Of a stretch of 64,000 nucleotides of DNA, positions 18,384 through 35,863 are shown piece by piece. The notes under the pieces were generated by a model that ran no database searches, had not been told where the DNA came from, and saw nothing but the letters and a program-made list of their open reading frames with translations. Position numbers and translations under genes: made by a program. The stretch is from Candidatus Latescibacterota bacterium. GTDB lineage: Bacteria; Latescibacterota; UBA2968. Position 1 is the stretch's first letter, and each line of letters opens with the position of its first letter. The stretch lies in assembly GCA_965207885.1 (NCBI GenBank), contig OZ242311.1, positions 416,001 through 480,000 of the forward strand, read 5' to 3'.

Positions 18384-21300
18384 TCAAGCGGCACTTTCGT
18401 AATATGGCGATGGTAATTTGGGATAGGCGCGGTAGATGTGGCGGAATACGTCTTCGGTTTTTGTTTTTATGTCCTTTTCCGTGTATTTGTGAGGCAGGCC
18501 AGTTTCGTCGCTGAAGAGAAAGTCATAGATGGATGTCCGTACGGCGTCTCGGGTCGCTTCTTTTTCACACCATTGGTGGACGCGCAGATTGCTGGCTTTT
18601 AGTTTTTTTAAGAGACTGACGGCCACTTTTTTTATTTGTGTGATTTCGTTTGCGTTCAGATTGGGTTTTTTCAAGAGGTCGAAAATGGCAAGGGATTCTT
18701 CGTCGAGGCCCTCGCGAACAGCCCGGGTCTCTTCTTCATCCAATGCCTGCACCAGTTTGAGTAATGCCTCGAAGGTGCGCTCTATTGTTATCTGGTCTTT
18801 TTCGCGGTTGTACGCTGCTACGATTGCTTCGTAGTGGTGCTGGAAGTCCGTGCGTAATGGGTTTTGCTGCAGTAGGCGTTGCAATTTTTGTTCTACTGCT
18901 TGTCTGAGGTTTTGGACGGTGGTGTTTTTTTCCCGGATACGCACGAATTCTCGCTTCAGACGCTCGAAGTCTATCTGGCTGATGTCGTAAAGGCGCCGAT
19001 CTTCATCAGGATGCGGATTTGCAGGTACATCACTGACTGTGGGTTCAATGGCCGCATCTACTATCCGCTGTAATTCCATTAGAATGTCTGAGATGTCGGC
19101 CTGATTGCGGTCTTGCTGGAGGCTTTTGTACACGATGTCAATGGCGTCGCGGTCTTTGCGATATGTGTGGATGTTCTGGACGTTGACACAGGCTTTGTAT
19201 TTTTTGAATACTTCGCGGCACATGACTTCGAAGCGTTTGCGGGTTTCGTCGTTTTCGTTGACGGCTTCTTTGCAGGCTACGATCGCTGCGTTGCGCTGGA
19301 AGCCCGTTTTTTCAATGATGTCGTCCAGTGGTGCGTTGCGTTTGTCGAGGAAGTCTCGCACCAGGGCGATGGCTTCGGCGAGGTCTGATAGGAGTTCTTC
19401 GTCGGGTTTTGCGGGGTCGGTCGGTGTGCTATCTCCATCCGTTTGCGTGCCAGCGAAGGTTGCGAGTGCCTGGCGCAGGTGGACGAGGACGCCGCAGTAA
19501 TCTACGATCAGGCCGTTGTTTTTGTTTTCGTTTACGCGGTTGGCGCGGGCAATGGCCTGCATGAGGGTGTGGGCTTTGAGTGGTTTGTCGAGGTAGAGCG
19601 TTGATAGGCACGGGACATCGAAACCCGTTAGCCACATGGCGCAGACAATGGCGATGCGGAATGGGTGTTCCTCATCTTTGAAGGCTTCGTCCAAGTCCAT
19701 GCGTTGCTTGTTGCGGTACTGCGGCTTGTTCCTCATGGACTCGGGCAAGTCCATGCCTTCTTTGATGAGCCTGCGGTGCTGGATGATGTCCAGTTCCCAT
19801 TTGTTGAATTTTTCGATTTCGCCCTGTTCTTCGCTGATTACGACTGCTGCGCGGGTCTCGCGCATCCATTCGATCTTCTGATGCAGGTATGTTTTCTCTT
19901 CTTCATCCGTTGTCCGCGATAGCCTTGTTTCCAATTTTTGGATGTGTTCGTGCCAGTAGAACTCAATCAATTTGTGCATTCGCACACAGGTTATTTTGTC
20001 GATGCAGACCAGCATGGCTTTGCCGGTTTCCCAGGCGGTTGAGTAGTGTCGCGTGAAGTCCCGCGCCAGTTGGTCGAGCCGTTTGCCCGCGGTGATGATG
20101 TGGTAGGCGCGTTTGAGTTCTCGTTCGAGGTGCTGTTCCTCGTCGATGTCGCTGATTTCGGCCTCTTCCAATTTTTCGGCGATTTTTTCGTTCAGATCAT
20201 CAATTGCTACGCCGAGTTTGTCGCCGCGCGCGTCGTAGTAGAGGGGGAGCGTGGCGTTGTCTTCTACTGCACGCTGGAAGTCGTAGGTGGAGACGTAGTC
20301 GCCGAAGACGCGGCGTGTGATCTGGTCGTCTTTGAACAGGGGTGTGCCCGTGAAGCCCATGTAGGATGCGTTGGGCAGGGCGGCGCGCATGTTGGCTGCT
20401 AATTCGCCGTATTGGGTGCGGTGCGCTTCGTCGGTGATGACGATGATGTCGTCGCGCTGGGTGTAGCCTTTTTTGGGATCTATGTCCTCCTGGTTGAATT
20501 TCTGGATGAGGGAGAAGATGTGCGATTTGTGTTCTGTCAATAGCTGGTTCAGGTGTGGCCCGTCTGTTGCGCGACAAGGGTCTCGGTCGTTTACAACGCC
20601 GCAGCCAGCGAAGGTTTTGTAGATTTGCGTGTCCAAGTCTGTGCGGTCGGTGAGGATGAGGAAGGTGAAGTTGCCACCGAGTTTGCGGTGTACTTTGCGG
20701 GTGAAGAGTACCATGGAGTAGCTTTTGCCTGCTCCCTGTGTGTGCCAGAAGACGCCGAGTTTGCCCTGGCGTGCTTTGCGGTCGCGCACGGCATCAATGG
20801 CGCGGTTCACGCCGAGGAACTGGTGGTTGCGGGCGAGGATTTTCTTTGTTTCGCCGGATGTTTCGTCAAAGAGGATGAAGTTTTCTATGATGTCCATGAA
20901 GTCGCGTTTGTTGCAGACGCCCTTGAGGAGGGTTTCCATATCGACGACGCCGGGTTCTTCTTCGGACAGGCGTTTCCATTCGTGGAAGTGATCCCACTCG
21001 CTGGTGATAGAGCCGAGTTTTGCTTTTTCGCCGTTGCCAAACATGACGATGGCGTTGTGGTGGAAGATGTGGGGGATGGTGTCGTGGTAGTCCGAGTAGT
21101 TGCCGTTGTACGCGGCTTTGAGATCTCGGTGGATGTTTTTGCATTCGATGAAGAGGAGGGGCAGGCCGTTGACGAAGCCGATGATGTCTGCCCGTCTGCG
21201 GTAGAGGTCGCCCTTTATCCACAATTCGCGCACGCAGAGGAAGTGGTTGTTTTCGGGGGTTTCAAAATCGAAGATTCGGAGGCGTTCCCGCGTCTGCTCG

Positions 21301-21638
21301 CCGTTGGCGTTGCGGAATGTGACGGGTACGCCGTTGCGGATGAAATCGTACTTTTCGCGGTTGGTGGCGACGATGCTCTGCGAAGCAGTGGTGGATGTGA
21401 TTTTCCGGATTGCGTCGTTGTAGGCGTCTTCGGGTAGGCCGGGATTAAGAGTTCGCAGTGCGGTGAGCAGATAGCGTGTGAGCACTACTTCGCGGTCGGA
21501 GGTGCGACCAAGCAGGCTATCCTGTCCGAAGTCCTCGCTGTTATAGGCATAGACAGATTCCCAGCCGAGTTGCTGTTCGAGATACTCGGCTGTGGTCTGC
21601 TGAACGAGGGTGTCTTCAGTGTAAGGGGTTGGGTTCAT
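18384..21638 (-). CDS. hsdR: Type I restriction endonuclease subunit R
   Basis: RADIIGFVNGLPLLFIECK nuclease motif, HTQGAGKS, DEAHRTQYG, FTGTP, MWLTGFD, QAIARANR. Confidence 0.96.
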   Translation of the reverse strand: MNPTPYTEDTLVQQTTAEYLEQQLGWESVYAYNSEDFGQDSLLGRTSDREVVLTRYLLTALRTLNPGLPEDAYNDAIRKITSTTASQSIVATNREKYDFIRNGVPVTFRNANGEQTRERLRIFDFETPENNHFLCVRELWIKGDLYRRRADIIGFVNGLPLLFIECKNIHRDLKAAYNGNYSDYHDTIPHIFHHNAIVMFGNGEKAKLGSITSEWDHFHEWKRLSEEEPGVVDMETLLKGVCNKRDFMDIIENFILFDETSGETKKILARNHQFLGVNRAIDAVRDRKARQGKLGVFWHTQGAGKSYSMVLFTRKVHRKLGGNFTFLILTDRTDLDTQIYKTFAGCGVVNDRDPCRATDGPHLNQLLTEHKSHIFSLIQKFNQEDIDPKKGYTQRDDIIVITDEAHRTQYGELAANMRAALPNASYMGFTGTPLFKDDQITRRVFGDYVSTYDFQRAVEDNATLPLYYDARGDKLGVAIDDLNEKIAEKLEEAEISDIDEEQHLERELKRAYHIITAGKRLDQLARDFTRHYSTAWETGKAMLVCIDKITCVRMHKLIEFYWHEHIQKLETRLSRTTDEEEKTYLHQKIEWMRETRAAVVISEEQGEIEKFNKWELDIIQHRRLIKEGMDLPESMRNKPQYRNKQRMDLDEAFKDEEHPFRIAIVCAMWLTGFDVPCLSTLYLDKPLKAHTLMQAIARANRVNENKNNGLIVDYCGVLVHLRQALATFAGTQTDGDSTPTDPAKPDEELLSDLAEAIALVRDFLDKRNAPLDDIIEKTGFQRNAAIVACKEAVNENDETRKRFEVMCREVFKKYKACVNVQNIHTYRKDRDAIDIVYKSLQQDRNQADISDILMELQRIVDAAIEPTVSDVPANPHPDEDRRLYDISQIDFERLKREFVRIREKNTTVQNLRQAVEQKLQRLLQQNPLRTDFQHHYEAIVAAYNREKDQITIERTFEALLKLVQALDEEETRAVREGLDEESLAIFDLLKKPNLNANEITQIKKVAVSLLKKLKASNLRVHQWCEKEATRDAVRTSIYDFLFSDETGLPHKYTEKDIKTKTEDVFRHIYRAYPKLPSPYYESAA

Positions 21639-23395
21639 TTGGGTGGTCGATCAAAATAAAAACCCAACAGACTTTTAGAGGGATCTTCGTCGGTGAGGGT
21701 CAGCCGAACATGCTTATCGAAGTTAAAGCCATCGCTAAAGTCATCTCGCGGAACCATATCGGAATTTAGAGTACAAATGTACTGTACATTATTTGCACTT
21801 GATACCTTGCTCGCATGCTCAAATGCAAGTGCTCGTTGCCTGGAGTCAACACCGTCATAAAGACCACTGTCATGAATCAAGAAATTGAGTCTATCATTCT
21901 GTTTTGACATGATTTGTAATAGCATCAAATCGAAGCAGAAAATTTTCATCTTCTCAATGCCTTCGCTACCACTTTTGTCTATCTCGACATCGTACTTGAA
22001 CCCTGTTTCATCAATATTAATCACCAAGCGCCCGGGTGCCTCGTAAAGTGCCTGAGAGTTGTCGTTGAAAAGACGGAGTGGAAGGCTCCAAATATCTCTA
22101 CGTTCTTCGTGATCTTGCTCGGCAATCTTAGTCAATTCAGCCTTCGCTATATTTATATTGCGTTTCCGCGTGGTTCTATCCTTTATTTCTTCAAGCCAAG
22201 TAAGTTTCTGTTCTAAATTGCTGCGTATTTCAATGATGCGTTCCTGGAGTTTAGCCAGTTCTTGCAGTGCTCCGTGCGTTTCAAGAATTCTAAGCAAATC
22301 AGCCCTCTCATCAGTTAGTCGTCTAATTTCATCGTTTTGGACCCTGATTTTACGTTCTATGCGCCTGATTTCCGTTTCGAGAAAGACTCGCCTATTCTCG
22401 ATAATTTTCGAATGAAACTCTTTGGCTTCGGTAAGAGTACGACGAACCGAGTCAGAAAAAATCACACCAGTTTCTTCGTAGATATTGTCAATGGCTGTGT
22501 CAGAAGGGGGTGTCTCTGCTTCTACTGACTCTCTGTACCGAGACAAACGTCTTTGATCGACAATGTTCTTGTTGGTCAAATTGTGAATGGTTTCAGTGAT
22601 CTTATCAGCTTCGTTCTGAATTGTTTCGTACTGTGGGTGTACTTTGAATCCTTCTAAAGCATCTGATTCACGTTTGAGTTGACTTTCCAATTGAACGCAT
22701 TCCGCCTCTAACTCGCCAACTGAACCCCTTGCGCCTTCCATAGCACCGGACCTAATCGCTTCATCAATTGCCTTAATGCCCTTTTCTTGATCTTTCAATT
22801 CTTGCCATTTAGACGCATTCTCCCAGTTCATTTCAAGCAAAAGCGCGATGTGAAGTTGCCTGTCCCATGTCGCTTGGTGACGGGTATGACTGAATGGATC
22901 TATGTAAGCGGCGGTGCCGCGTCTTATGAAATATGAGATCAGACTACGGAAAGAAGGCCTGTGCCTGGTGGCATAGTCAGAGTGCAAGCCAAATAAAGCC
23001 CACCCCAAGAGTGCCCGCCAGCGGTCTAATTTGAACCTACCTCCTCTGAGGAGATCGAAACTATCAGGTTGTTCAATCCAACCAGTTGTCGGGCCTTCTA
23101 TATATAGCCAGTTCGGACTTTCAATAGCGCGGGTCACTTTCACACGGTTACCCTCAAGTGTAATTTCCAATGTAAATTCCCAATCTTGCAATGGATCTAT
23201 AGAGAGGCCCTGCCCCTTGCGAACGTTGGAGCCCAAACAAAAGTCAATAATGTCAATTAGAGTAGATTTACCCAGACCGTTTCGCGTGTCCTTTTGAGTA
23301 GATTCCTCAGTGCGGTCTGCTAAAATGACATTCAGTCCCGATGCAAATTCCACTGTATGAAATGAAGATTGGTTAGCAGTAATTCGATGAATCAT
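21635..23395 (-). CDS. lmuB: SMC-like ABC ATPase (DUF2326, ABC-three-component / short Lamassu LmuB)
   Basis: Walker A NGLGKST, coiled coil, signature-like KSGSEG, Walker B LIHDSG, YDGVDSRQ. Confidence 0.85.
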   Translation of the reverse strand: MIHRITANQSSFHTVEFASGLNVILADRTEESTQKDTRNGLGKSTLIDIIDFCLGSNVRKGQGLSIDPLQDWEFTLEITLEGNRVKVTRAIESPNWLYIEGPTTGWIEQPDSFDLLRGGRFKLDRWRALLGWALFGLHSDYATRHRPSFRSLISYFIRRGTAAYIDPFSHTRHQATWDRQLHIALLLEMNWENASKWQELKDQEKGIKAIDEAIRSGAMEGARGSVGELEAECVQLESQLKRESDALEGFKVHPQYETIQNEADKITETIHNLTNKNIVDQRRLSRYRESVEAETPPSDTAIDNIYEETGVIFSDSVRRTLTEAKEFHSKIIENRRVFLETEIRRIERKIRVQNDEIRRLTDERADLLRILETHGALQELAKLQERIIEIRSNLEQKLTWLEEIKDRTTRKRNINIAKAELTKIAEQDHEERRDIWSLPLRLFNDNSQALYEAPGRLVINIDETGFKYDVEIDKSGSEGIEKMKIFCFDLMLLQIMSKQNDRLNFLIHDSGLYDGVDSRQRALAFEHASKVSSANNVQYICTLNSDMVPRDDFSDGFNFDKHVRLTLTDEDPSKSLLGFYFDRPPK

Positions 23396-23619
23396 TGCTT
23401 CACCCTCACAATCAGACTGTTTTCTAGACTTATAGCACCGACGATGTGAAGCATGTCAAGTGCCAGCACAAACCGTTCAAAGGTGCCTATCGCGTCTTCC
23501 TCTCGAACGGTCTCCCACAGGCTGGTCACCGTCTGTGGTTGGTCAATCTCTTTGAGCAGGATGGCACCAACACCGATTAGAGCCTGGTCTTGGGAAATAT
23601 GCTTTGACGGAAGGATCAT
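23392..23619 (-). CDS. lmuC: ABC-3C middle component (MC6-like; Lamassu LmuC)
   Basis: 75 aa MILPSKHI...TVTSLW...FERFVLALDML; translationally coupled on both sides. Confidence 0.8.
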   Translation of the reverse strand: MILPSKHISQDQALIGVGAILLKEIDQPQTVTSLWETVREEDAIGTFERFVLALDMLHIVGAISLENSLIVRVKQ

Positions 23620-24377
23620 CTCTCAAACACCTCGCAGGTCTCAAACAGGTAAACCAGTACCGCTAATCCGGCGGACCGCTTGGCTTGCTCCACGAAGCCT
23701 CGCTGTGCAAATCTACACATTAAATCGAAAAGAACGTCTCCCGAATGCCCGTCTTGCCTCAACCGATAGTACTCTTGTAGAAATCCCACCTTCAAGCGTT
23801 CTGGAAAATCTTGATCCGTCTGCGCCACACTTTCAATAAACGCTCGCACCTCACGCGAAATACTGAGGCCCATTGTAATGATCATTCGAGAGCCGTTTCC
23901 CAATGCGTTTTTATTTATTTTATTTTCAGGCGCGATCACCGAAAAGTCATTGTCAGGGGCAGTCTGTTGTAGATTAATTTGCATGATCCACAGGGTGGCT
24001 TCTTCCAATTCTGGGAATCCAATATCTACGAATGCATCGGCTATTGCATCACGGACCGTTTGTTCGTGTTCACTCTTGATCTTGTGGAGGCGTTCTACGG
24101 GATAGTCGTTCTCACCTTGCGGCATCGCGTCAATTATGGTGTGGCAGGTTCCGCACAGATAGATGAGATTGTTATAATGGTCTCTATTCTTAGGGGGCAT
24201 ATTTTTATCATAACGAGCTGATCCAGGATTTTTACCAGCGATATGTGCTGCTTCTCCTACGTTGATAGGATCACCGCTTTCACTGTCTGGTGACAAATTC
24301 TGTCCACAACCGGGCAAAGCACATATGTCTCCACTTCGGTAGGCCAAGAGGATTTTAGTTCGGTTGGATACGCTCAC
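23616..24377 (-). CDS. lmuA: HNH endonuclease effector with ABC-3C C-terminal domain (Lamassu LmuA-HNH)
   Basis: CALPGC...EAAHI...NLIYLCGTCHTIID HNH/Zn motif; VLVYLFETCEVFER tail. Confidence 0.82.
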   Translation of the reverse strand: MSVSNRTKILLAYRSGDICALPGCGQNLSPDSESGDPINVGEAAHIAGKNPGSARYDKNMPPKNRDHYNNLIYLCGTCHTIIDAMPQGENDYPVERLHKIKSEHEQTVRDAIADAFVDIGFPELEEATLWIMQINLQQTAPDNDFSVIAPENKINKNALGNGSRMIITMGLSISREVRAFIESVAQTDQDFPERLKVGFLQEYYRLRQDGHSGDVLFDLMCRFAQRGFVEQAKRSAGLAVLVYLFETCEVFER

Positions 24378-24688: not shown

Positions 24689-27600
24689 TTAAATTTGGTA
24701 AGCGGAATCACTCCGACGGCGCGGGATAGATTGTAGCTGTGGCTCGCTCCCGCCGAGATTTGCCAACCGTCGGGCACTTTCTCGTTCAATCAGTTTTTGG
24801 TTCCGAAGCATTCTCATTTTCGCGTCATGTTCGGCAACATTTACTTCCGCTTCTCGATCATATCCCTCTGCTAATTTTCGGAGTGTAACAGCAAAGCGGT
24901 GATAGCCTGCATTTTCAACGTCTTCGGCTTTTTGTCTGTATTTTTCGGCAAGCTCTTGTTCTGGTTTTCCCGTTGGGTCAACTGTGTGAACCCCGCGAGA
25001 GTTGTACATTCCAGAACGGAAACTATTCCTCATTTCTTCTTCATCCGTCGCATTGAGCGCAGAGGCGACTGTTCGGTGTATCCACAACCCTTCTGGATCA
25101 GGTGGCGCATGAATGAGAACATTTCCTATATGCATAAGAGCGGCCTCAAGATGTCCGGATTCATTACACGCTTCTTTTGTTTTCTTAAGCCACTTCTCGA
25201 ATTGGTCAGGTAAAAATTGACCATCTGATTGCTTACCCGGCGGAGTTTTCCATTTATCAAGGAGTTCGTATGCGTTATCAGCAATGGCTTTATCCTGTTC
25301 GCTAAGTTCTTTTGGAGATTTCATTTCATTTTTTGATCGATAGATAAGGCGTATTAGTTCGCAGAAAAAATCCGGGTCAGAAGATAGGCGATTTTCTAAT
25401 GATTTCGGTGATGTATCAGCATAATAAGGTTCATTCAGCAATTTCAGGTAGGCCCATTCAATTTGAAAAAGAGCATCAGGATCGGTGTCTGGGTCGTCCT
25501 GTAAAGCCTTTATGATTTCGATGATGCTATGCAGATCCACCACATGTGAAGGTTCTTTAGAAGAAATCGCAGCCATGAGAGCTTTTACACTTCGGGTTTT
25601 GTCCAATGGCTGTTTACTGTGTATCATTTTATGCAGACAGGCGATAGCCGCATGGGGTCTGTCATACTCTATCAGTTTGTCTATGGCAATGCTGAGGTCG
25701 CCATCAGTGTGATCTTGGTATGGGTTTGCACTGGTTTTGTTCCAGTACCCCTTTTCGGACTCGCCCAGCCAATCTGTTGCGCGATGCCAGGTCTCCTTTG
25801 TAAAGGGTAGATAGGATAGGAACTGACCTGTTTGTGCTGCTGACCAGTTTGAGGTGTTAAAGCTATCAACCCATTCCCATCCATTGACATTTTGGCGACA
25901 ACTGACATAAGCACTTGTAAGCAGCGCGAGTTTGGTGTTATCTGTTTCCAGCAATGCAGGAAGGATGTGTTTGTCAGTTTCCTCCTGTGCTATAGTACCC
26001 AGAGAACGTCCAACAAACCAGGGTGCCTCAACACTTTCGGCGAATTGAAATACCATATCCATCCCACCATCAGCCAGAATCTCTTTTATCGCTTGCTGAC
26101 GGCGTTGATCGAGTTTTTGGCGGTGTTGATCAAGTTTTTCCTTTTGCTGTGGGTCTCCCCAGGTTCCTTCATAGAGAGCCAAATCATTGTGACCAAATAA
26201 TCTGCGATGAAGATGAAATGGATTTTGAGGCGCGAGTTTTGCGGCAACATCCTCGATTTTGGAAAGGATTTTATCGCTTAAAGCCCATTCTGCGTCAGAA
26301 AAGCGTCTGTGTTTTGAGGCAAGCTTAGTTAGTTGAGACCAGATTTTTAGACGCTGATCTTCAGATTTGCCGCATATCTCTTCTGATGATAGATACTCGA
26401 GCAATTTGTCAAAAGAAGGCTTTGGTAAGTTATCAAGATCACCAATCAACTCGGTTAATTTATCAATATCATTGCTTGCCATCGAAACCGCTATTTCAGC
26501 ATAAGAGGTAATTTGCTTCCAGTACTCCTCTTGAATAACACGATCTTCCCAATCATCGGGAATGGTATTTCGCCACGCAGGTTTGTGAGTGCCGGAGGAC
26601 ATCTGATGCTGATTTGGCAACAGATTGATCAATAGGTTCCATGCCACATCTGGGACTGTATTTATCAGCGTTTTTACAGCAACTTCGCGCTTCTCTATGG
26701 GTGCAATAGTCTGCGGATGCCACGGGAGTATAATTTCTGTCAGCGAATTGGCTGGGCGGTTCGCCCAATTCCCACCGGGATCATGTTCCGCAAGATCACC
26801 GAGAATTACGCACACTCGGACGAGATACTCAGCATCCCAGGCAAGGGTTTCCAATGCCCAGAGTAGGCCAACGAGGTAATTTCTACCCCCCACACCTCCG
26901 CGTTCCTGTGAAAACAATTCGTCAAATGGGCAAGGAGATTGGTCCAACGCATTTTCTACCGCGTTCAAAAAATCATTTGGGGCTGCTTCTGCCAGCACAG
27001 GGAGAAGATCATTTAGACTACCCCACAATACCCAATCAGCATTCTTAAGAATTTCGCGAACAACACGACTGGCTGTGTCTTTTGGCTTCCAACCTTGATG
27101 TTGTGGCGAAAAGTTCTTCAAAGCATCGGGATTAGTGCTGAGAAGTGCCAGCGTTTCAGCTAATCCTTTCCGAAGACCGTTTGAGTATTTTGGTACCTTG
27201 TCGTAAATATTGGCGGCATAGCGTTCATCAGCAGGTAAGTCAAACTGAGGATTGCGCTCGGACAATACTGTAACCGCACACTGTTTCAGGACTTTCAGCG
27301 TGTCATCAAAAACACGTCCGCCTAATGCCTGCCACATTCCTTTTCGATCAATGACTTGCCATCTCCCGTTTATAAACGTCACAGGGCTTATGGCTTGTTG
27401 TAACATCTCCCTCAGTTTGGGAATCCATTTTGTGTAATCCTCTTCATTGACAAGCTGACGCACAATTTCTAGATCGGCTTCGTTTAGCTCATTCCACGCG
27501 CCAAGAAGGTTGGCAATCGCCAGGTCAGAAGCGTATTCGTGCTGATTCCAGTCTGAATGGGTTTGTTGTTCGTCAGAAGACTGCAATCGAATTGTCTCAA

Positions 27601-28033
27601 TTTCTCGCAAACTGAGCGCGCCGAGGGACTCGCCATTGCGTCCATACCAATGTCCTTTCCAGGCAGTTGGAATGCCTTGCATGGCGGGCGGAATTTTGAA
27701 CATGACAACGCGGCCACCTGGGTGATTGAGCACATAGATTTCATCGAATGTGAGGTTATCAGTTTCATTGGCAATTTCCTGTTTCAAGCTGTCAAGGTGC
27801 GCTGGATTTTCGCGGAACTGACTGCCGCAAACCGAATGATCATTTTTTACACCGAATATCAACCAACCACACGCTTGCTTTTTCAAGTTGGCTTCGTTGG
27901 ATAGCGCAGAGAAATACTTGCCCAACTTCTCGAAGTCATACTGATTTTGAGCTTCTTTGAACTCGAGCCATTCTGTCTCGTGCGGAAGTTCACACAGACG
28001 GTCGAGTTCCTGACGAAGTTCAGATTGGTTCAT
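24689..28033 (-). CDS. Schlafen/AlbA_2 N-terminal domain fused to a large alpha-helical domain
   Basis: ETEWLEFKEA...YFSALSN...GWLIFGVKND...WYGRNGES; then LAEAAP...GLLWALETLAW...DPGGNWANRP...PWHPQT; SD gggaga and TGnTAGAAT upstream of ATG 28033. Confidence 0.85.
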   Translation of the reverse strand: MNQSELRQELDRLCELPHETEWLEFKEAQNQYDFEKLGKYFSALSNEANLKKQACGWLIFGVKNDHSVCGSQFRENPAHLDSLKQEIANETDNLTFDEIYVLNHPGGRVVMFKIPPAMQGIPTAWKGHWYGRNGESLGALSLREIETIRLQSSDEQQTHSDWNQHEYASDLAIANLLGAWNELNEADLEIVRQLVNEEDYTKWIPKLREMLQQAISPVTFINGRWQVIDRKGMWQALGGRVFDDTLKVLKQCAVTVLSERNPQFDLPADERYAANIYDKVPKYSNGLRKGLAETLALLSTNPDALKNFSPQHQGWKPKDTASRVVREILKNADWVLWGSLNDLLPVLAEAAPNDFLNAVENALDQSPCPFDELFSQERGGVGGRNYLVGLLWALETLAWDAEYLVRVCVILGDLAEHDPGGNWANRPANSLTEIILPWHPQTIAPIEKREVAVKTLINTVPDVAWNLLINLLPNQHQMSSGTHKPAWRNTIPDDWEDRVIQEEYWKQITSYAEIAVSMASNDIDKLTELIGDLDNLPKPSFDKLLEYLSSEEICGKSEDQRLKIWSQLTKLASKHRRFSDAEWALSDKILSKIEDVAAKLAPQNPFHLHRRLFGHNDLALYEGTWGDPQQKEKLDQHRQKLDQRRQQAIKEILADGGMDMVFQFAESVEAPWFVGRSLGTIAQEETDKHILPALLETDNTKLALLTSAYVSCRQNVNGWEWVDSFNTSNWSAAQTGQFLSYLPFTKETWHRATDWLGESEKGYWNKTSANPYQDHTDGDLSIAIDKLIEYDRPHAAIACLHKMIHSKQPLDKTRSVKALMAAISSKEPSHVVDLHSIIEIIKALQDDPDTDPDALFQIEWAYLKLLNEPYYADTSPKSLENRLSSDPDFFCELIRLIYRSKNEMKSPKELSEQDKAIADNAYELLDKWKTPPGKQSDGQFLPDQFEKWLKKTKEACNESGHLEAALMHIGNVLIHAPPDPEGLWIHRTVASALNATDEEEMRNSFRSGMYNSRGVHTVDPTGKPEQELAEKYRQKAEDVENAGYHRFAVTLRKLAEGYDREAEVNVAEHDAKMRMLRNQKLIERESARRLANLGGSEPQLQSIPRRRSDSAYQI

Positions 28034-28190
28034 ACTGAAATCTCCCATTCTGATTCTACCATAAGATTGGGTATGCATCAGACAGGCGGCAGTTTCGAAT
28101 ATATTACTTCAAATTTTCCACCGTGTTCTTGTTGCAACTTCGCTTCTTTTATATTTTGGTCTCTTGGCAATGTTTCCGCACAGTCCAAAC

Positions 28191-29147
28191 TTAGACAGAG
28201 ACCCGGTCAAATGCCTCTGTAAAAGTAATGCTCCCATTCTGCATTTCACGTCTGATGTTAAGAATATCTGATGGAGTCGGCAGGCCATCAATTTGCAATT
28301 TGCAAGAAATATTAAGACGTTCAAAAAGAGAGTTGATTTCCTTGACGATATGATCTCTTAATACAGCCAGTGCCCAGTGAAAATTAACCAATCTATGGAA
28401 AACGAAAAACTCTGTTGATCGTTTTTCGGACAAATCTCTTCGATTCCACCCCCATTTTTTGGTAACTTGTCCGCAGTATATATCAGCCATTCTTACATAC
28501 TCTTGAAAATCAAAATTACTGTCTTGCAAGCCTTTTGCTAAATCTTGACTCCAAAAATTTGGAGGCAAACTTTCATATTGTCCCAGGTTCTTTATCATAG
28601 CTTTATATCCCTTTCGTCCACCTAACATCGGGGGCATCTCGAAGTACCAAATGCGCTTTGATGGGACCAAGACAAAGTTCTTTTCCCACAGGTCTCGGTC
28701 CCTTTTGGGAACCAGTTGCAGAAAGTAGCCGGGAAGACGTAATAATCTTCTTGATGTGAAACCATAGAGATGGGCAATATTGTTGTCATCAAATATTATT
28801 TCGTGTACTGAGCATCCTTCATGGGAAAGGTGTCTTACTATATTTTCAATAACATCACAGACTACTCTATTTAGATCATGTCGTCTGATTAGATCATGTT
28901 GGTCATTCGGATTATATCCATATTGCATTTCTCTAATAAGTTGTCTTGCCTTTTCACACTCCCTCTCATCTCCATCCATGCTAACAGAAAACGCTTTCTG
29001 TTTCGTTGTATGACCTCCAATTGGCATTATTGCCAAATATATATCTTCGGTGAACATATGTATGTTCAGGTTGTTATCTGTTTCGTTTGAAAGGCTGGGA
29101 AAATGTCTGGCGACTGTCGGCTGTACTATGTCGTGATACCCCATCAT
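28191..29147 (-). CDS. Hypothetical protein
   Basis: 318-aa AT-rich ORF with ATGA overlap to the upstream membrane gene. Confidence 0.75.
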   Translation of the reverse strand: MMGYHDIVQPTVARHFPSLSNETDNNLNIHMFTEDIYLAIMPIGGHTTKQKAFSVSMDGDERECEKARQLIREMQYGYNPNDQHDLIRRHDLNRVVCDVIENIVRHLSHEGCSVHEIIFDDNNIAHLYGFTSRRLLRLPGYFLQLVPKRDRDLWEKNFVLVPSKRIWYFEMPPMLGGRKGYKAMIKNLGQYESLPPNFWSQDLAKGLQDSNFDFQEYVRMADIYCGQVTKKWGWNRRDLSEKRSTEFFVFHRLVNFHWALAVLRDHIVKEINSLFERLNISCKLQIDGLPTPSDILNIRREMQNGSITFTEAFDRVSV

Positions 29148-31681
29148 TCTTCACCTCCATCATTACGAAGAATGTCTTGATATCTTCGTTTCGCCCTTTG
29201 CAAAGCATTGGGGAAATGCTGTCGGTTACGTCCAAAATCTAAACTTTCTCCATCCTCGCAATTCCGCAGATAGAAGTTGATGAAGACGTCAATTCCGTCA
29301 TAACGACTTAGATGACGTTCACCGACAAATATGCGGACTAATACATCTTCATGATCAATTTCTATATCCGACGTTATTGCTTCAATTCCATCAACCTCAC
29401 GGCGAGGAACATTCCTTAACACATTCATTATTTTTTGTTTCCAACTGGTGCGTAGAACTGAACGATGTGGTATTATTCCAAATGCACTTTCTGTAAAGGC
29501 AACTGCTCCAGCCAATAGAGGTAATGGCGATTGCTCACGTTCTCGGTTTAAGTATTTGTCCCAGGCCTGTGTCACTGTCTCCCATAACAACACATTTTCA
29601 TGGTAATCAGCCATCAATTTTGCATACCCGCTGATATCTATAAGATCCAATAATGGTGCCGCAGCTATCTTAAAATCCTGTTGAGCATGCCAATCTGTAA
29701 TTGATGTTGTTGGTTTGAGTTTATCAAACTTCAATAGAGCACCATGTAAATACGGTTTAAAGACATTTTTTAGTAAGGCGGTGTCATTCTTTAATAGAGC
29801 ATCAAATGCAACTTCGCCTGAAGTGTGAAGAAACTGCCCTGCATAATCTGGATAATTCTCCGGACGGTTAATAAGAGCAAGTAATATATTTTGTTTTGAC
29901 ATCTGTGACAGCAATTCATTTTGTCTGGCATCGCTCTTGGAACGTAGTTCTTCAAGGTCTAACTGGGACCAGGGCAAACCATCTATGTATCGCTCACTGG
30001 TCAGTTCATCCCAGACCTTCGGCCAGATATTATTGAGTTGATCGCTTACCTTATGCCAGTACTCCCACTCCCGACTCATTATGGCCGCTGCCAGCCATGG
30101 TCGACTACAGTCAGTTGCTTTTTTAATACTGGTTTTAAATAAATCTGCACTTTTGATAATCAATGTCTCGGCACTGGCAACAAATTGCTTTGCCTCTACT
30201 TGGCGCACAAGCTCTGTAAGATACCAAAGAGGTGAAACTACATGTCCTTCTACTGTTTTTTCAAACACGAGCCGCGGTTTCAACCACTCAACTCGTGAAA
30301 GACAATGTTTTGAAAATCCCTGACGGTAGATACTGGCCTCTTTGGTCCAGCGTACTGAGGAGACCATGTTTTTTATAGTCTGAGAGCTAATACTCTCCAT
30401 AGTTTCTCGGTAGGTCAAAGCTACAGATATAGTAAGAGCAGATAATCGTTCTACCAGTCCTAATTTCTCCAGAGTTCCTTGTAAATTGCTATCGGTTTGT
30501 TTAGTGAATTGGTCTAAAACTGTTTCCATCAAATTCTCTACCAAAACAAAGGCTCTATCCACGCTCCCTTCACGCGCAAGTTTTTTTATGTAAACCCCTG
30601 TATAATCAAATAGACCAAATAGATCGGTATAACGTCCGTTCACTAAATTGACCTCAATACATCTCTTGACAATTGGAATGCACCTTTCCTCAATCCATTC
30701 ATTATTGGTTGTTATTTCTGGCTGAATCATTGTGCTTGTCTGGTGAGCAAGGTCCACAGCCGTATCGCCTGTTCGATACCAGTCTCGGTGTTGGTATTGC
30801 TGCTGATACCAAACACTTTCAGTAGGTATTTTACGTTTCGCATCTTCATAAACAATTAAAAACTTCAGAACATTTTTGGATAATTCTATGAAAGGTTTGC
30901 CATTTAAATGTGGCTCTTTCGATGTGATGTCTGACAGTGTTTTAAGTGTGTCCAGTGTTGCTGAAGCCTTTTTGTGGGCATGATTTTGGAATGATTGATC
31001 CTGCCATCTGAATCCGCCTATAACTACCATGCTCAGCCAGCGATGAAGCTCCTTAAAGAGATGATGTGATAGCGCAGTGGGGTCAAAAAAATAGAAAGCC
31101 CGTTGCCCAAGTTTCACGAATGAAATAATCCCTATTCCTGCCAATATTGTTACCAGTGGTATCGCGAAATGCACTTTGGGAAATCCCATTTCACGGAAGG
31201 CAATTAAGATCAAGCCGAGAAATGTCAAAAAGGCGAGAAAGCCCATATAGACATTTCCAAATCTCTCATGTGCCAACAGATCTCTAATATTATTTGGTAC
31301 TCTCGCATATGTGGTGCTACCCACCATGCTAAGACCTGCATAATACAGACCGATGAAAACTCCTCCAATACCGCTGATCGTTGCCAACAACGTCACATAA
31401 TCACTATCGTCGGGAATTGCAATACCAATGCTCCCATAGTATGAGTATAAATAGGAGTCAATCGTTTGAATCAGTGCAGCAATCACAATACAGATTAATA
31501 GCAGCGCCCAGGTGATCCTGAAGAGGTGTCTAAATGATTGGTAATTAGCTCTCTCTTCATTAAGCCTGTATCGAACACTATATATACGTGCGCCCAACCA
31601 AAAAAAAATATTTCTCAGGATACTACGTAGTAACCAAAAGCCCCGTGATTGATATAGTTGTAAAAGGAATCTGTTCTTCAT
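29144..31681 (-). CDS. Hypothetical membrane protein (4 N-terminal TM helices, DUF2254-like topology, large helical C-terminus)
   Basis: 845-aa ORF with hydrophobic segments at about aa 53-72, 95-118, 143-161 and 172-190. Confidence 0.8.
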   Translation of the reverse strand: MKNRFLLQLYQSRGFWLLRSILRNIFFWLGARIYSVRYRLNEERANYQSFRHLFRITWALLLICIVIAALIQTIDSYLYSYYGSIGIAIPDDSDYVTLLATISGIGGVFIGLYYAGLSMVGSTTYARVPNNIRDLLAHERFGNVYMGFLAFLTFLGLILIAFREMGFPKVHFAIPLVTILAGIGIISFVKLGQRAFYFFDPTALSHHLFKELHRWLSMVVIGGFRWQDQSFQNHAHKKASATLDTLKTLSDITSKEPHLNGKPFIELSKNVLKFLIVYEDAKRKIPTESVWYQQQYQHRDWYRTGDTAVDLAHQTSTMIQPEITTNNEWIEERCIPIVKRCIEVNLVNGRYTDLFGLFDYTGVYIKKLAREGSVDRAFVLVENLMETVLDQFTKQTDSNLQGTLEKLGLVERLSALTISVALTYRETMESISSQTIKNMVSSVRWTKEASIYRQGFSKHCLSRVEWLKPRLVFEKTVEGHVVSPLWYLTELVRQVEAKQFVASAETLIIKSADLFKTSIKKATDCSRPWLAAAIMSREWEYWHKVSDQLNNIWPKVWDELTSERYIDGLPWSQLDLEELRSKSDARQNELLSQMSKQNILLALINRPENYPDYAGQFLHTSGEVAFDALLKNDTALLKNVFKPYLHGALLKFDKLKPTTSITDWHAQQDFKIAAAPLLDLIDISGYAKLMADYHENVLLWETVTQAWDKYLNREREQSPLPLLAGAVAFTESAFGIIPHRSVLRTSWKQKIMNVLRNVPRREVDGIEAITSDIEIDHEDVLVRIFVGERHLSRYDGIDVFINFYLRNCEDGESLDFGRNRQHFPNALQRAKRRYQDILRNDGGEE

Positions 31682-31774: not shown

Positions 31775-32905
31775 TCAAACCGCCATCTCCCCACTCATCA
31801 ACCGCGGCAGAAGCAGGTCTCGGGCTTGGGTGAGTCTGCGTATTTCGGTAGAAAGTATGTCAATTTGTCGAAGGATCGGCGATATAATGCCTGTAAACTT
31901 GTCAATTAAACTGGTTTCAGGAACTACAAAAGGAATGAGCTTAAAGGTGTTTCGGATAATCGCATCGAAGATTGCGCCAACTGCTCGACTGCGAAATTGT
32001 TCAACGTTTTCTACCATGGCGAAGTAGAGAAATTGCTGATTCAGTGGTAGCTTGGCTACCAGAGCATAACAGGACTGATTCATCGCCATGTCAGTTTGGG
32101 CAAGATTAATTTTGCCGACTGTTCCGCGTGCGGTGATGAAAACGGTATCTTTTGGATATAGCCTACTGCTACAATTACGCAGTCCTTCTTCCGTAAGCGT
32201 TCGTTCTGTACTAAAAATGTATGCGTAATCCGTAGTATCCTTTGACGTGAAGAACGGAATCTCACCGTTCCAATAATCGGGCACACTCGTCTTAGGTGTC
32301 CCTCCGCTCAGGACATCCATTACATCGAGAGCATTTTTCTTTTCCCACCCTTCCGGCACGCCATCTGTGATGGTGACGTGTTCATGGCCGGGGAAACGGA
32401 GGTGGACGAACCACTTCTTGTAGAGTAGCTGCGCCGACTGTTCCAGCAATTGAATCCGCCGCCGGTTGTTTTCGATCAGGTCGTCGTAGGTGGAGACGAT
32501 AGAGGCAATGCGGTCTTGTTGGCTGAAAGATGGGATAGATACCATAAGTCGCAAAGCATTGTTGCGGTTCAGCCCTGGAACAGCAGCATCTGTGTTCATT
32601 TTTTGAAGCGGCAATGTCTTCAACAAGTAATAGGCGTATTGAAGCCTGATTCTCCCTTTAAGGACAACATAAAAGGTGGTATCAATTGGGAAGAAATCCT
32701 CTTGGCTCCAATGAACAGCACCAATAGTGCCTTTTCTACCAATGATGACACCCGGCCCTTTAATTAGTGGCGTTTCATGAAAATCTACAACACCTGCTGA
32801 TCCATACACAGGAAACCGGCCTTTTTTGCGTTGCCGCGCAGGGAGACCTTTACCGTATGCAAAGTCGATAAACTCACTCAATGGTTTTTTTCTCCCTTTA
32901 CTCAT
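31775..32905 (-). CDS. hsdS: Type I R-M specificity subunit
   Basis: Two TRDs; conserved QQDRIASIVSTYDDLIENNRRRIQLLE, VPEGWEK and RDLLLPRLMSGE. Confidence 0.95.
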   Translation of the reverse strand: MSKGRKKPLSEFIDFAYGKGLPARQRKKGRFPVYGSAGVVDFHETPLIKGPGVIIGRKGTIGAVHWSQEDFFPIDTTFYVVLKGRIRLQYAYYLLKTLPLQKMNTDAAVPGLNRNNALRLMVSIPSFSQQDRIASIVSTYDDLIENNRRRIQLLEQSAQLLYKKWFVHLRFPGHEHVTITDGVPEGWEKKNALDVMDVLSGGTPKTSVPDYWNGEIPFFTSKDTTDYAYIFSTERTLTEEGLRNCSSRLYPKDTVFITARGTVGKINLAQTDMAMNQSCYALVAKLPLNQQFLYFAMVENVEQFRSRAVGAIFDAIIRNTFKLIPFVVPETSLIDKFTGIISPILRQIDILSTEIRRLTQARDLLLPRLMSGEMAV

Positions 32906-33015: not shown

Positions 33016-33288
33016 TCACATCACATCCAATATCGCTTGCGGGTTTTTGTCTGCGACCATCAATAGTGTCCGAGCAGCACCTGATGGACGACGGCGGCCT
33101 TGCTCCCAATCTTGCAATGTGCGAACAGATACACCCATCAATTGGGCAAACTGAGTTTGAGAAAGACCCACTTTCGCTCTCGTTTGGGCAATGTCAGGTA
33201 CTGTGATGATACGACCGTGTTCGCCGCGCTTGATTTCCTGTAGGCCAGATAGAATCTCTTGACCAATATCTCTATTTTTTTCATTCAT
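33016..33288 (-). CDS. XRE/HTH antitoxin (NadS/HigA-like), orphaned
   Basis: GLSQTQFAQLMGVSVRTLQDWEQGRRRPSGAARTLL. Confidence 0.9.
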   Translation of the reverse strand: MNEKNRDIGQEILSGLQEIKRGEHGRIITVPDIAQTRAKVGLSQTQFAQLMGVSVRTLQDWEQGRRRPSGAARTLLMVADKNPQAILDVM

Positions 33289-33436
33289 TTTCAATTGCTG
33301 CTAATGAAAGGGAGCTGGCTGCATATACTATGGGCATGCCTTTGTGATTCCAGCGTCCACCATATCGCCGTGCCCCTTCACCCGTAAAAGCTGAAGCTAT
33401 GCGATGTGCCTGTACAATTCGCCAGGCTGTCAGCAT
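33281..33436 (-). pseudogene. Truncated RES-domain toxin (ParT/MbcT-like), 51 aa
   Basis: MLTAWRIV...AFTGEGARRYGGRWNHKGMPIVYAASSLSLAAIENE*; not in the ORF track, translated by hand. Confidence 0.88.
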
Positions 33437-33930
33437 CATGAAAATACCCCGTACTCAATTCGTCCCAGAAGGTCTTCAACTTCTCGAGCACCTAATTCGG
33501 TATCTGCATAATCCAGTGGAGAAACGCTACCAAGAGCAGTTAATGGCGTTGCAAACCATTGACGGGCAACTTCCTGTCCTCCCAGAACCTCGACAGCCCG
33601 ATCATACAACAGACCAATACGCAGCAGTCGTTCCGATTCATCGATATGCAACCGTCCCTCTTTTTTTTGATGTGTCAGTGTATGTACCGCAATTTTAGTC
33701 ACAGAAGCCAGAGCTTGTTCAGAAATGCCCATAGCGTTTTTTAATGCGTCAAATGTCGCTACTGGTAATCCTTCTTTTATTGCTGCAATCATTTCAGATC
33801 GGTTTTCAAAACGCCACCCCGCCGATGTCGCATAAGTCGTGGTCTGTCCTTCTGCGATAAGTGAAGCACCATCTGCTGTTCGAAATCCTGTGGGTGTCCA
33901 CCTCCAGACTTTCAATTGTTGAGTTTTCAT
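33436..33930 (-). CDS. Xre/MbcA/ParS antitoxin
   Basis: IKEGLP...ESERLLRI...AVEVLG...WF..P..ALG...PLD...GAREVEDLLGRIEYGVFS. Confidence 0.9.
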   Translation of the reverse strand: MKTQQLKVWRWTPTGFRTADGASLIAEGQTTTYATSAGWRFENRSEMIAAIKEGLPVATFDALKNAMGISEQALASVTKIAVHTLTHQKKEGRLHIDESERLLRIGLLYDRAVEVLGGQEVARQWFATPLTALGSVSPLDYADTELGAREVEDLLGRIEYGVFS

Positions 33931-33983
33931 GTATCCTCCTTTTTCCACGAGGCAATAATGCTGCCAGTGACTGCTTCTCCCTC

Positions 33984-34420
33984 CTACCCCAGATGCTCAA
34001 TTTCAACATTCCCCCAGTATTCCCGGAGGTCCTCGGCTACCAGACGTCTGTGGCAGTAATGGGGTTTGTCCTCGCTGCACAGCAGGCATGCATCTTCAAG
34101 GGTTTCTTGCTCAATCTCGTTTTCTATTTTCCGGGCGGCCATGAGATCGATAAAGTCGCGTTCATAAGTCTCCCAACTGCCGCGCTTTTTCTTGTAGGCG
34201 TCCAGTATGTCCTTTGTCGGTGCCAAGCTCGGCAGATGCGTGTAATCCATGCCGCAAATTTGTTTTAGAAAGTAGGCAAGGTCATTTTTTTCGCAAATCC
34301 CGACAACTGGGACACGTTATTGAGTCGCACATCAACGACCCGCTTGACGCCTGCTGTTTGCAAGTTGTCGAAGAACTGTTCTGCGCTCTTTTTGGTGAAG
34401 CCAATGGTGAAAATTTTCAT
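33984..34420 (-). pseudogene. DUF488 family protein frameshifted in a poly-A tract
   Basis: MKIFTIGFTKKSAEQFF...DVRLNNVSQLSGFAKK, then A7 at 34285-34291; A8 would restore NDLAYFLKQICGMDY...CLLCSEDKPHYCHRRL. Confidence 0.85.
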
Positions 34421-35013
34421 TGTGTAGCCTCCGCATCAACATACGCAATGCGCTGTTCCTGTGCCGCGTATGCCCGGTCTTCCAATTCATCAGGGGTGAG
34501 AAATAGATCCTGTGCTGGCAATCGCAGTTGCTCAGACAGGCGTTTCATCGCCTCGTCGTGTGGCTCCAGTGATCCATCCTCAAGAATGTGTGTGACATTC
34601 AGGCCGCTTGCCACCAATTCGCGAGCGACGAGAATTGTCCGGTGACAGTCCAGAGGGTCCTTCTCTGCACACATCAAGGCAATGCGTCTGTGTCTGCTCC
34701 CATCTCGGACGCGCTTTATTCCGGATTGAAACAGTGGGGTTTCGGCGAGCGCGCGATACTGCACCCGGCCGTTTTCGTAACATTGTGGATCGTCACTGCG
34801 TGCGCCGAGTTCCTTCCCGAGAAAAACATAGGCAATACCCCGGGCTTTCAGGGCTTCTACCAGATTTTCTCGATTGAATTGCGGTTGCCAACGGCTATAT
34901 GGAACCGACCGTACGTCTGCAACAGCATCCACGCCATGTTGTTTCAGGAGGGAGACGAAATCCTCAAACTCATGCGTCGAGTGTCCCACGGTGAATATTC
35001 TCGTTTTTGTCAT
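34417..35013 (-). CDS. DUF488 family protein
   Basis: IFTVGHS, DVRSVPYS, LGAR, ALMCAEKDPLDCHR. Confidence 0.92.
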   Translation of the reverse strand: MTKTRIFTVGHSTHEFEDFVSLLKQHGVDAVADVRSVPYSRWQPQFNRENLVEALKARGIAYVFLGKELGARSDDPQCYENGRVQYRALAETPLFQSGIKRVRDGSRHRRIALMCAEKDPLDCHRTILVARELVASGLNVTHILEDGSLEPHDEAMKRLSEQLRLPAQDLFLTPDELEDRAYAAQEQRIAYVDAEATQ

Positions 35014-35063
35014 CGCGGTTGCCGACCTTATTGGTCCGAAGATTTCGTTGAAACACCATTATA

Positions 35064-35117
35064 CAATAAATGTAGCGAATCATGCGAAATAGTGCCACCT
35101 TTGCACATCTATATTGG
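35064..35117 (-). promoter_or_regulatory. Copy B of the triplicated promoter-like motif
   Basis: caataaatgtagcgaatcatgcgaaatagtgccacctttgcacatctatat aligns to 18325-18377. Confidence 0.7.
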
Positions 35118-35170
35118 TACAGGTTTGGTGCGCGATTAGATGTGCGCGTTTGGCTGCTCGTACAAGTGCG
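35114..35170 (-). repeat. 57-bp relic of the small gene at 35669-35863 (direct repeat of 35739-35795)
   Basis: 49/57 identical; ALVRAAKRAHLIAHQTCT versus ALIRAAKRAHLIAHQTGT. Confidence 0.85.
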
Positions 35171-35320
35171 AAAGCAAAAGATAACTCAATGCTGTTACAC
35201 AAGCAACATCGCGGCGAAAAAATGGGCAAGCAGTACATATCTTTCACATGACCGCCCATTCATCGCTCAAAATGTACAGAGATTGTTCTGCGCCAAACAC
35301 GCAATCCACAAATTCAGGTT

Positions 35321-35650
35321 GTGAACAAGGGGGCAATACAGCATATTGAAGGCATAATTTTTGAAATTATTATGAAGGAGGGTCTCATGGATCTCATCCG
35401 CGAATCATCTCTTATCCAATACTTTAAGCGAGAAGGCAGAGAGGAAGGTTTTGAGCAAGGGGAAAGAAAAAGCACGATCGAAGATATCCTTGAAGTGTTG
35501 GAGATTCGCTTTGGTCTGAGCGAGACGCATCCCTTATCTGCTCGTATTTCGGCTATTGACAATGTGCAGCACCTTAAGCAGTTGCACCGTGCGGCGATAC
35601 AGGTGTCCAATCTCGATGACTTTGAGGGCATGTTAGATGCAACGGCGTGA
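35321..35650 (+). pseudogene. C-terminal fragment of an Rpn/DUF4351-like protein
   Basis: IRESS...EGREEGFEQG...ILEVLEIRFG...LKQLHRAAI; N-terminal domain absent; the only + strand ORF in the island. Confidence 0.55.
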
Positions 35651-35668
35651 CGCGATTGCCCAATAAAC

Positions 35669-35863
35669 TCAAATGTCGTTGTACATCTCCGGGTCCGGGT
35701 CAATTTCCACGACTTTGCCGTCGCGCATGACCACAACTTTGGTGCCGGTCTGGTGCGCGATCAGGTGTGCGCGTTTGGCGGCTCGTATAAGCGCGGTAGG
35801 TGCCGCTTGCATGTCGGGATCGTCCAGTTTGGACACAGGGATTTGATGTTTTTCTTTTTTCAT
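35669..35863 (-). CDS. Small partner protein of the zeta-like ATPase
   Basis: 64 aa; ATGA overlap; ALIRAAKRA...VVVMRDGKVVEI pattern. Confidence 0.75.
   Translation of the reverse strand: MKKEKHQIPVSKLDDPDMQAAPTALIRAAKRAHLIAHQTGTKVVVMRDGKVVEIDPDPEMYNDI

Follow-up and report, generated by a model that had tools for sequence, protein, structure and literature searches.

Organisation of the locus

The stretch of DNA analysed here (the window) is 64,000 nucleotides from a Candidatus Latescibacterota bacterium (contig OZ242311.1, positions 416,001 to 480,000). It contains a type I restriction-modification (R-M) operon that is rich in passenger genes and lies entirely on the minus strand. Inside this operon is a gene for a protein of 1114 amino acids (aa), in which an N-terminal Schlafen/AlbA_2 nuclease domain is joined to a long helical-repeat body, and which is referred to below as the Schlafen-solenoid gene (Table 1). 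Type I R-M genes, the PDC-M68A/B pair and toxin-antitoxin (TA) genes are all found within 10 kb of it. The genome of 6.23 Mb contains one copy of the gene, which falls in a low-GC stretch (0.40-0.47 vs 0.53 in the flanks).

Table 1 Features of the Schlafen-solenoid gene and of the surrounding operon, in positions of the window (ORF, open reading frame; SD, Shine-Dalgarno sequence)
Feature	Position	Strand	Basis or remark
Schlafen-solenoid gene, 1114 aa	24689..28033	minus	ORF list and translation; stop codon 24689-24691
Schlafen/AlbA_2 nuclease domain, aa 1-152	27578..28033	minus	Pfam PF04326 and fold match of the AlphaFold2 model
Catalytic motif E19-TEWL-E24-F-K26 (Ex4ExK)	27956..27979	minus	Conserved in relatives
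D65 in GVKND, candidate third acidic residue	27839..27841	minus	Conservation in relatives
Linker and small helix/strand element, aa 153-232, first part of the conserved module	27338..27577	minus	DSSP on the model
Alpha-solenoid (HEAT/ARM-like) body, aa 233-1044	24902..27337	minus	AlphaFold2 model
Long terminal helix (aa 1045-1092) and disordered basic tail	24692..24901	minus	DSSP, helix 1045-1092
Upstream signals: hsdS 3' remnant (about 28034-28050), SD GGGAGA (28040-28045), TGgTAGAAT match (28053-28061)	28034..28061	minus	Sequence and alignment
hsdR	18384..21638	minus	Pfam HSDR_N, SWI2_SNF2, T1RH-like_C; PADLOC REase_I, E 2e-162
PDC-M68A (HNH-type, 253 aa) and PDC-M68B (SMC/LmuB-like ATPase with DUF2326, 586 aa)	21635-24377	minus	
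Gene of no named family, 318 aa, overlapping the next	28191-29147	minus	Between hsdS and the Schlafen-solenoid gene
Gene of no named family, 845 aa, overlapping the previous	29144-31681	minus	Between hsdS and the Schlafen-solenoid gene
hsdS	31775..32905	minus	Pfam Methylase_S, E 3e-30; PADLOC Specificity_I, E 9e-107
Candidate hsdM, 690 aa	36690..38762	minus	Named from reading of the translation and BLAST clustering

The minus-strand ORF spans 24689..28078, and the ATG at 28033-28031 was chosen as the start codon, giving a protein that begins MNQSEL. This choice is backed by the relatives, whose alignments begin at residue 1, and by two related loci (L001 and L003) in which the start of the gene overlaps the hsdS stop. 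The SD sequence (GGGAGA, 28045-28040) is placed 6 nucleotides before the ATG. A first-pass annotation, made from the letters and their translations, had credited the gene with its own extended -10 element and SD. Both strings are present; an own promoter is unproven, because a consensus scan found no two-hexamer promoter near TGgTAGAAT on the minus strand and because a leftover of the hsdS 3' end precedes the ATG. When the region was aligned to loci L001, L002 and L003, about 17 nucleotides before the ATG matched the hsdS 3' end of L001 and L003, and thus the SD belongs to the old end of hsdS. The sequence farther upstream is common to the window and L002 only.

In the window and in L002 the junction of hsdS with the gene is broken by a cassette of the 845-aa and 318-aa genes, which sits at the same place in both loci. 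The gene could accordingly be pictured as decaying cargo, an inactive relic left when the cassette broke the junction, as the ancestral 4-bp coupling to hsdS has been lost in both loci and about 17 nucleotides of its end are left. However, the reading frame of 1114 codons is unbroken, none of the catalytic and hardly any of the invariant module residues have been lost, the SD stands at the correct spacing and L002 keeps the same arrangement at 75 % protein identity. We consider decay highly improbable. Nor is the fusion an artefact of this assembly, since 68 cluster representatives with Schlafen plus solenoid come from other assemblies.

The Schlafen nuclease domain

Pfam SLFN_AlbA_2 (PF04326) matched aa 19-136 with an E-value of 2.8e-12 (47.6 bits vs a cut-off of 25.3) and was the sole Pfam family in the protein. 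PADLOC (E <= 0.01) and NCBIfam gave no match for the 1114-aa protein. When the AlphaFold2 model of aa 1-152 was compared with known structures using VIA-align, it matched DIP2311 (3lmm_C; Z 9.9, root-mean-square deviation [rmsd] 3.1, 122 residues aligned), the nuclease lobe of human SLFN14 (9jr9_A, chain 209-325; Z 7.6, rmsd 2.4, 97 aligned) and SLFN13 (5yd0; Z 6.7, rmsd 2.5, 98 aligned), and the Z values against SLFN13, SLFN11 and SLFN12 ranged from 6.7 to 7.1.

The catalytic motif is intact. E19, E24 and K26 are retained in 30 of 30 relatives of the Schlafen form, and D65 is retained as D in 28 of the same 30; from the active sites of SLFN13 and SLFN11 we take it to be the putative third acidic active-site residue. 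Profile, fold and motif all place the protein in the Schlafen/AlbA_2 family, which agrees with the N-terminal domain and motifs first proposed for it, and the structure prediction gave the Schlafen fold on which that proposal had been made to depend. The available text of Perez Taboada et al. 2026 (PMC13056530) defines Ex4(E/D)xK as the Schlafen active site.

The solenoid body

The full AlphaFold2 model, built on an alignment of 54 rows, had a mean predicted local distance difference test score (pLDDT) of 79.2 and a predicted template modelling score (pTM) of 0.70. For the C-terminal half alone (aa 600-1114) these values were 92.7 and 0.86, respectively. Between about aa 230 and 1092 the model consists of helices throughout. 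Between the nuclease domain and the solenoid, DSSP assigned helices at aa 168-177, 185-194 and 200-211 and strands at aa 218-221 and 224-227, and this small element may resemble a winged helix in the model. At the other end, aa 1095-1114 have a pLDDT below 50 and the terminal segment has a pI of 10.1.

The first-pass description of a Trp-rich helical module of about 950 aa lacking an NTPase is borne out. The protein contains 34 Trp residues (3.05 %) and the strings LAEAAP, GLLWALETLAW and DPGGNWANRP, and no Walker A was found by motif search in its 1114 aa, nor any NTPase family in Pfam, NCBIfam or PADLOC. P-loop candidates elsewhere in the family were rejected; a regular expression matched in 47 of 270 proteins, and the strings concerned, of the ATDWLGKS or AAxxYGKT type, lie within solenoid helices.

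When the full model and the C-terminal half were searched against structural representatives with Foldseek and VIA search, generic HEAT/ARM/TOG or long-helix matches only were obtained. The best fold matches of the solenoid (8ezj_B, Z 7.6, rmsd 5.4, 252 aligned; 5nr4_B, Z 7.1, rmsd 6.6, 126 aligned) lie, at Z <= 7.6, within the noise for helical repeats. Sequence searches of the PDB, run once with the protein by itself and once with the family profile, returned only chance rows (E > 0.2), and the ESM Atlas returned only unnamed 'hypothetical protein' clusters.

The solenoid family and its exchanged N-termini

The solenoid has no model in Pfam, NCBIfam or PADLOC 2.0. Of 8000 candidates scored in a word-indexed search, 2534 were relatives at E <= 0.001. 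When aa 170-1114 were searched exhaustively with phmmer against 1.84 billion cluster representatives, 5579 matches at E <= 0.001 and 2836 at E <= 1e-30 were obtained, spanning nearly the whole module of about 890 aa (query positions 2-900). The hallmarks of the module are LLWALETLAW and DPGGxWxNRP, the query being a member by construction. In relatives whose N-terminus is a different one, the alignment begins at about aa 140-170.

The part preceding the module was cut out and clustered in 270 fetched relatives. Among the 150 best phmmer representatives, the largest class consists of an N-terminus of about 290 aa with no Pfam family (70 members), followed by a class of about 380 aa (29 members, with Metallophos in P0149) and by proteins whose N-terminus is short or missing (29 members). 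SIR2_2 was found in four, and Schlafen, SMEK_N and TIR_2 in two each, the latter as two separate singletons. PNP_UDP_1, GT4-conflict, FRG, Abi_C and DUF4062 occurred once each, and small classes of no known kind account for seven. The Pfam names rest on two sets of 16 and 22 representatives. Schlafen is thus a rare variant among the N-termini of this family. PADLOC matches on the N-termini of relatives were pAgo-associated SIR2, TIR and REase, 'Effector, PN-superfamily' (which we read as a CBASS-type effector) and PDC-S15. On the solenoid side the sole PADLOC trace was a faint match of relative P0121 to PD-Lambda-4_A (E 0.0025).

In addition, the N-terminal part (about 320 aa) and the module (about 863 aa) are encoded by separate adjacent genes in four loci (L030, L034, L035 and L079), and a 214-aa gene precedes a module without N-terminus in L074 and L075. 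The idea of a swapped effector, already put forward in the first-pass annotation, is correct, because ten or more other N-terminal domains, of kinds that occur in defence effectors, precede the same module.

For the loci, one genome per species was scanned; 587 relatives were found and the best 80 loci were retained, making 81 with the window. The hosts of these best 80 of 587 are Latescibacterota (the closest, at 83 % identity), Chloroflexota, Planctomycetota, Bacillota, Cyanobacteria, Pseudomonadota and several archaea. The module is also present on 24 plasmid records and at 17 viral-contig loci. In 10 of the 24 plasmid records the protein is a distant member (25-29 % identity over about 94 % of the module) annotated as a helix-turn-helix (HTH) regulator, and one distant plasmid member contains HTH_3 at aa 35-82. 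The annotations of these distant members read transcriptional regulator or HigA antitoxin. On a Rhizobium plasmid (L082, 4585-8700) one such HTH-bearing member is followed by genes of 1281 and 415 aa whose function is undescribed.

The HTH-bearing members raise a non-immune alternative, in which the solenoid would serve a host nucleic-acid process as scaffold or regulator, while the Schlafen domain would bind or process nucleic acids in a housekeeping or regulatory capacity. The high conservation of the module fits this idea, as does the figure, in the available text of PMC13056530, of 30.4 % of prokaryotic Schlafen (pSlfn) genes not near defence genes. On the other hand, the family is distributed patchily and on mobile DNA (plasmids, viral contigs and islands), the gene in the window lies in a low-GC island, as a single copy in a non-syntenic setting, and the other N-termini found on the module are killing domains such as NADases and nucleases. 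A non-immune role is in our view very unlikely.

Position within type I R-M operons

Neighbours at the 81 loci were taken from called ORFs clustered by BLAST. In 21 loci, of bacteria and archaea and whatever the N-terminal effector, the genes follow one another on the same strand as hsdM-(x)-hsdS-gene-(x)-hsdR. When the immediate same-strand upstream neighbours were scanned with Pfam, Methylase_S was present in 14 of 55, to which L067 was added by its BLAST cluster. Of 48 immediate downstream neighbours scanned, 6 were HsdR, and the gene overlaps or abuts hsdR in L028, L044 and L071. At 8 of 15 hsdS/gene junctions there is a 4-base stop/start overlap, and two more overlap by 11 and 20 bases. 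Genes for RhuM, Fic or Abi_C lie between the gene and hsdR in other loci, and TA genes, transposases, integrases and a DUF499/HEPN gene are also found at other loci. The 14 complete HsdR proteins flanking the gene comprise 12 with T1RH-like_C, one with EcoR124_C and one with neither, a ratio for which the background rate is not at hand. With a quarter of the relatives coupled inside type I R-M operons, the single-gene part of the first-pass proposal is called into question; its swapped effector stands.

Such a placement suggests a PrrC-like guardian, in which the solenoid would bind or monitor the Hsd complex and remain silent, and the effector (here the Schlafen tRNase) would be released when a phage anti-restriction protein disables the enzyme. 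The gene order irrespective of effector, the hsdS neighbours, the stop/start overlaps and the contacts with hsdR all favour this explanation, together with the orphan hsdS that accompanies the gene in L015 and the hsdS 3' remnant at the start codon in the window. The strong conservation of the solenoid would also suit a conserved host partner, and prrC is itself embedded in a type IC locus and activated on inhibition of the enzyme, according to the available text of PMC12707154.

Several results tell against it. No hsd gene was present in 60 of the 81 loci within the DNA examined, some contigs being short. Among 30 genomes with non-embedded members, 25 had an HSDR_N profile match, several of them only partial, and five had none; the control genomes had a match in 8 of 14, so the rate of 25/30 is not clearly above that of the controls. 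One of the five genomes without a match (G004) has its locus (L062) on a 5.2-Mb record that bears the title 'chromosome: 1'. On the basis of these five genomes, the idea that a type I R-M partner is obligatory was rejected. In a FastTree tree of the 81 modules, embedding changed state 16 times, compared with 18.7 +/- 1.4 in 1000 label shuffles, 6.4 % of which had a change count no higher than the observed one. Embedding is therefore scattered on the tree, and an hsd-specific clade of the family was rejected. Neither the 270 relatives nor the proteins of > 1950 aa yielded a fusion to an Hsd subunit, the latter being weak evidence. Finally, many unrelated cargo genes (RhuM, Fic, YhcG and Abi_C) share the operons, so that the site is a general cargo slot.

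The restriction enzyme thus does not seem to be obligatory for the solenoid proteins. The lack of an obligatory link argues against a guardian as the general rule, though not for the embedded members, and for the gene in the window we regard a guardian role as unlikely. The broader proposal, that the solenoid is a general restriction-guardian module docking on the type I complex, to whose genes it is translationally coupled in many phyla, and firing any effector upon attack by phage anti-restriction proteins, seems to us unlikely as well. If it were true, the module would make PrrC-type second-line immunity widespread and modular, with thousands of members, rather than a single E. coli curiosity.

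Proposed function of the protein

We lean, with modest confidence, towards a single polypeptide that acts autonomously as an anti-phage sensor-effector and whose output is tRNA cleavage. The solenoid of about 950 aa would be the sensing and autoinhibitory part that keeps the Schlafen nuclease inactive. It may directly bind a cue made during infection, presumably a phage-made molecule, by analogy with the logic of DSR2 or pSlfn5. The nuclease, once freed or assembled, would cut tRNA or another RNA through E19, E24 and K26 (with D65), and this cleavage would stall translation. Slfn-sensor fusions already described operate along these lines (PMC13056530).

The proposal takes up the Schlafen fold, the intact motif, the swapping of effectors and the residence in a defence-rich R-M operon, all of which are observed. 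The wide host range, which includes archaea, and the presence of the module on plasmids and viral contigs speak for it as well. Phage defence, the binding of a phage product by the solenoid and tRNA as the substrate are what we infer. That the gene so often lies between hsdS and hsdR we take to reflect a second defence layer being co-expressed and co-inherited with restriction, with no requirement for the restriction enzyme.

A number of points weigh against an autonomous sensor-effector. The fixed and translationally coupled placement after hsdS, which spans bacterial and archaeal phyla, exceeds a loose island neighbourhood. The solenoid is 40-60 % identical across phyla and domains, which is unusual for a sensor of fast-evolving phage proteins, and distant members carry an Xre-type HTH in place of the effector, hinting at non-killing outputs. 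No specific structural relative of the solenoid was found in the fold searches or with the profile against the PDB, and no published experiment on any member of the family was found in the literature searched.

Other genes of the operon and of related loci

The candidate hsdM clusters by BLAST with genes of 355-763 aa upstream of hsdS in related loci, and the hsdM label of that cluster rests on position and size. The PDC-M68 pair, a candidate system, lies between the Schlafen-solenoid gene and hsdR and is also present in L001. Between hsdS and hsdM (33016-36384, minus strand) there are small passengers, which were named from reading their translations. They comprise a HigA-like HTH gene, an Xre/DUF2384-like gene preceded by a short fragment that resembles RES, and a 174-aa P-loop (AAA) kinase-like gene with a 64-aa partner. 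There are also three DUF488-like pieces, of which one measures 198 aa and the other two are short and look like a second copy that has been broken.

In the case of the overlapping 845-aa and 318-aa genes, the proteins had no match in Pfam, PADLOC or NCBIfam. For the 845-aa protein 316 relatives were found, which differ very little in length and are all annotated 'hypothetical', and the pair is a candidate for an undescribed two-gene defence cassette.

Other loci of the set contain further arrangements. In L015 (8825-13120) hsdS stands directly before the Schlafen-solenoid gene and no hsdM or hsdR was recognised in the surrounding 23 kb; two upstream ORFs that were scanned there (398 and 104 aa, the nearest one not among them) gave an MFS transporter and no family, respectively. 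A 471-aa protein with AlbA_2, HATPase_c_4 and Fic-like_C is encoded in or beside the type I R-M operon of L007 (12769-14181). This second Schlafen type was grouped, by BLAST cluster alone, with genes of L003 (572-2140), L037 (15210-16862), L056 (3904-5616) and L071 (578-2002). Locus L018 (13843-17673) encodes a 1277-aa HsdR with a DUF559/MTES_1575 endonuclease-like insert (aa 288-393) between the N-terminal nuclease domain and the motor domains.

Comparison with known systems

DSR1 and DSR2 are single-gene systems in which SIR2 is followed by a long helical C-terminal sensor, and they contain no NTPase. The Schlafen-solenoid protein has the same kind of architecture, an N-terminal killing domain on a large helical-repeat body without NTPase, and the solenoid family includes SIR2-bearing members (P0121 and P0127). 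Unlike in DSR1 and DSR2, the N-terminus of the query is Schlafen and not SIR2. No PADLOC DSR model matched the query or P0121 and P0127, the SIR2 match of the latter two being pAgo-associated SIR2, and therefore we do not count the protein as a DSR member. No DSR2 chain was among the fold matches listed; only generic solenoids were listed, and unlisted families are not excluded thereby.

Avs/STAND proteins also carry swappable N-terminal effectors on a conserved sensor that contains repeats. The sensor region of Avs4 (8dgf_B) was among the weak fold matches (Z 5.7, rmsd 6.5, 228 aligned), within the noise for helical repeats. Unlike those proteins, the query has no central P-loop NTPase, in line with the missing Walker A and the all-helical model, and because of the missing NTPase it is not a STAND/Avs protein.

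The protein fits the published prokaryotic Schlafen defence fusions by architecture and neighbourhood. In the available text of PMC13056530, pSlfn fusions are phage-activated tRNases, for example RorSlfn5 (Slfn-Ig-like) and EcoSlfn7 (DUF262-Slfn), so that Schlafens as phage-defence tRNases fused to varied sensors, which the first-pass annotation had treated as established, are in print. As in these fusions, an N-terminal Slfn nuclease with Ex4(E/D)xK is joined to a putative sensor in a single polypeptide near defence genes. The partners named in that text are HisKinase, HTH, DUF5929, Ig-like, DUF262, TBP-like and TPR, in contrast to the solenoid of about 950 aa found here, and in the solenoid family it is the sensor and not the Slfn domain that forms the conserved core. 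The solenoid architecture may be among the 558 'unannotated fusion' clusters of that paper. A motif search of 12 of its 17 supplement files (cells to 400 characters) gave no match, and a word search of all 17 files gave no HEAT/ARM class, only a TPR class with genes of about 350-530 aa. No description of the solenoid family was found in the literature searched, including the available passages of an S. thermophilus preprint.

PrrC consists of an ABC-ATPase-like N domain and a PrrC-type nuclease C domain, and its gene occupies the same position between hsdS and hsdR. The Schlafen-solenoid gene resembles PrrC/RloC in its putative tRNA-directed nuclease output and in lying between the specificity and restriction genes of a type I R-M system. 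In contrast, most solenoid relatives are outside R-M operons, and neither an ABC-ATPase-like N domain nor a PrrC-type nuclease was found in the protein with Pfam, NCBIfam or PADLOC. In sequence and domains the protein is unrelated to PrrC, and the link stops at gene position. For prrC, the available text of PMC12707154 describes activation in the type IC locus when the enzyme is inhibited by T4 Stp.

In comparison with these systems, the principle is known, the sensor family is unnamed and very large, and its position-fixed link to type I R-M was not found in print. If the autonomous sensor-effector reading is true, one of the largest prokaryotic immune sensor modules, with > 5000 clusters at 50 % identity in bacteria and archaea, is still unnamed, and the Schlafen-bearing form would offer tRNA cleavage as an easy read-out for what the module senses. 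The hsdS-gene-hsdR placement would mean either that the module watches the enzyme, like PrrC, or that it merely rides along, and either answer would clarify why accessory genes build up in type I R-M operons.

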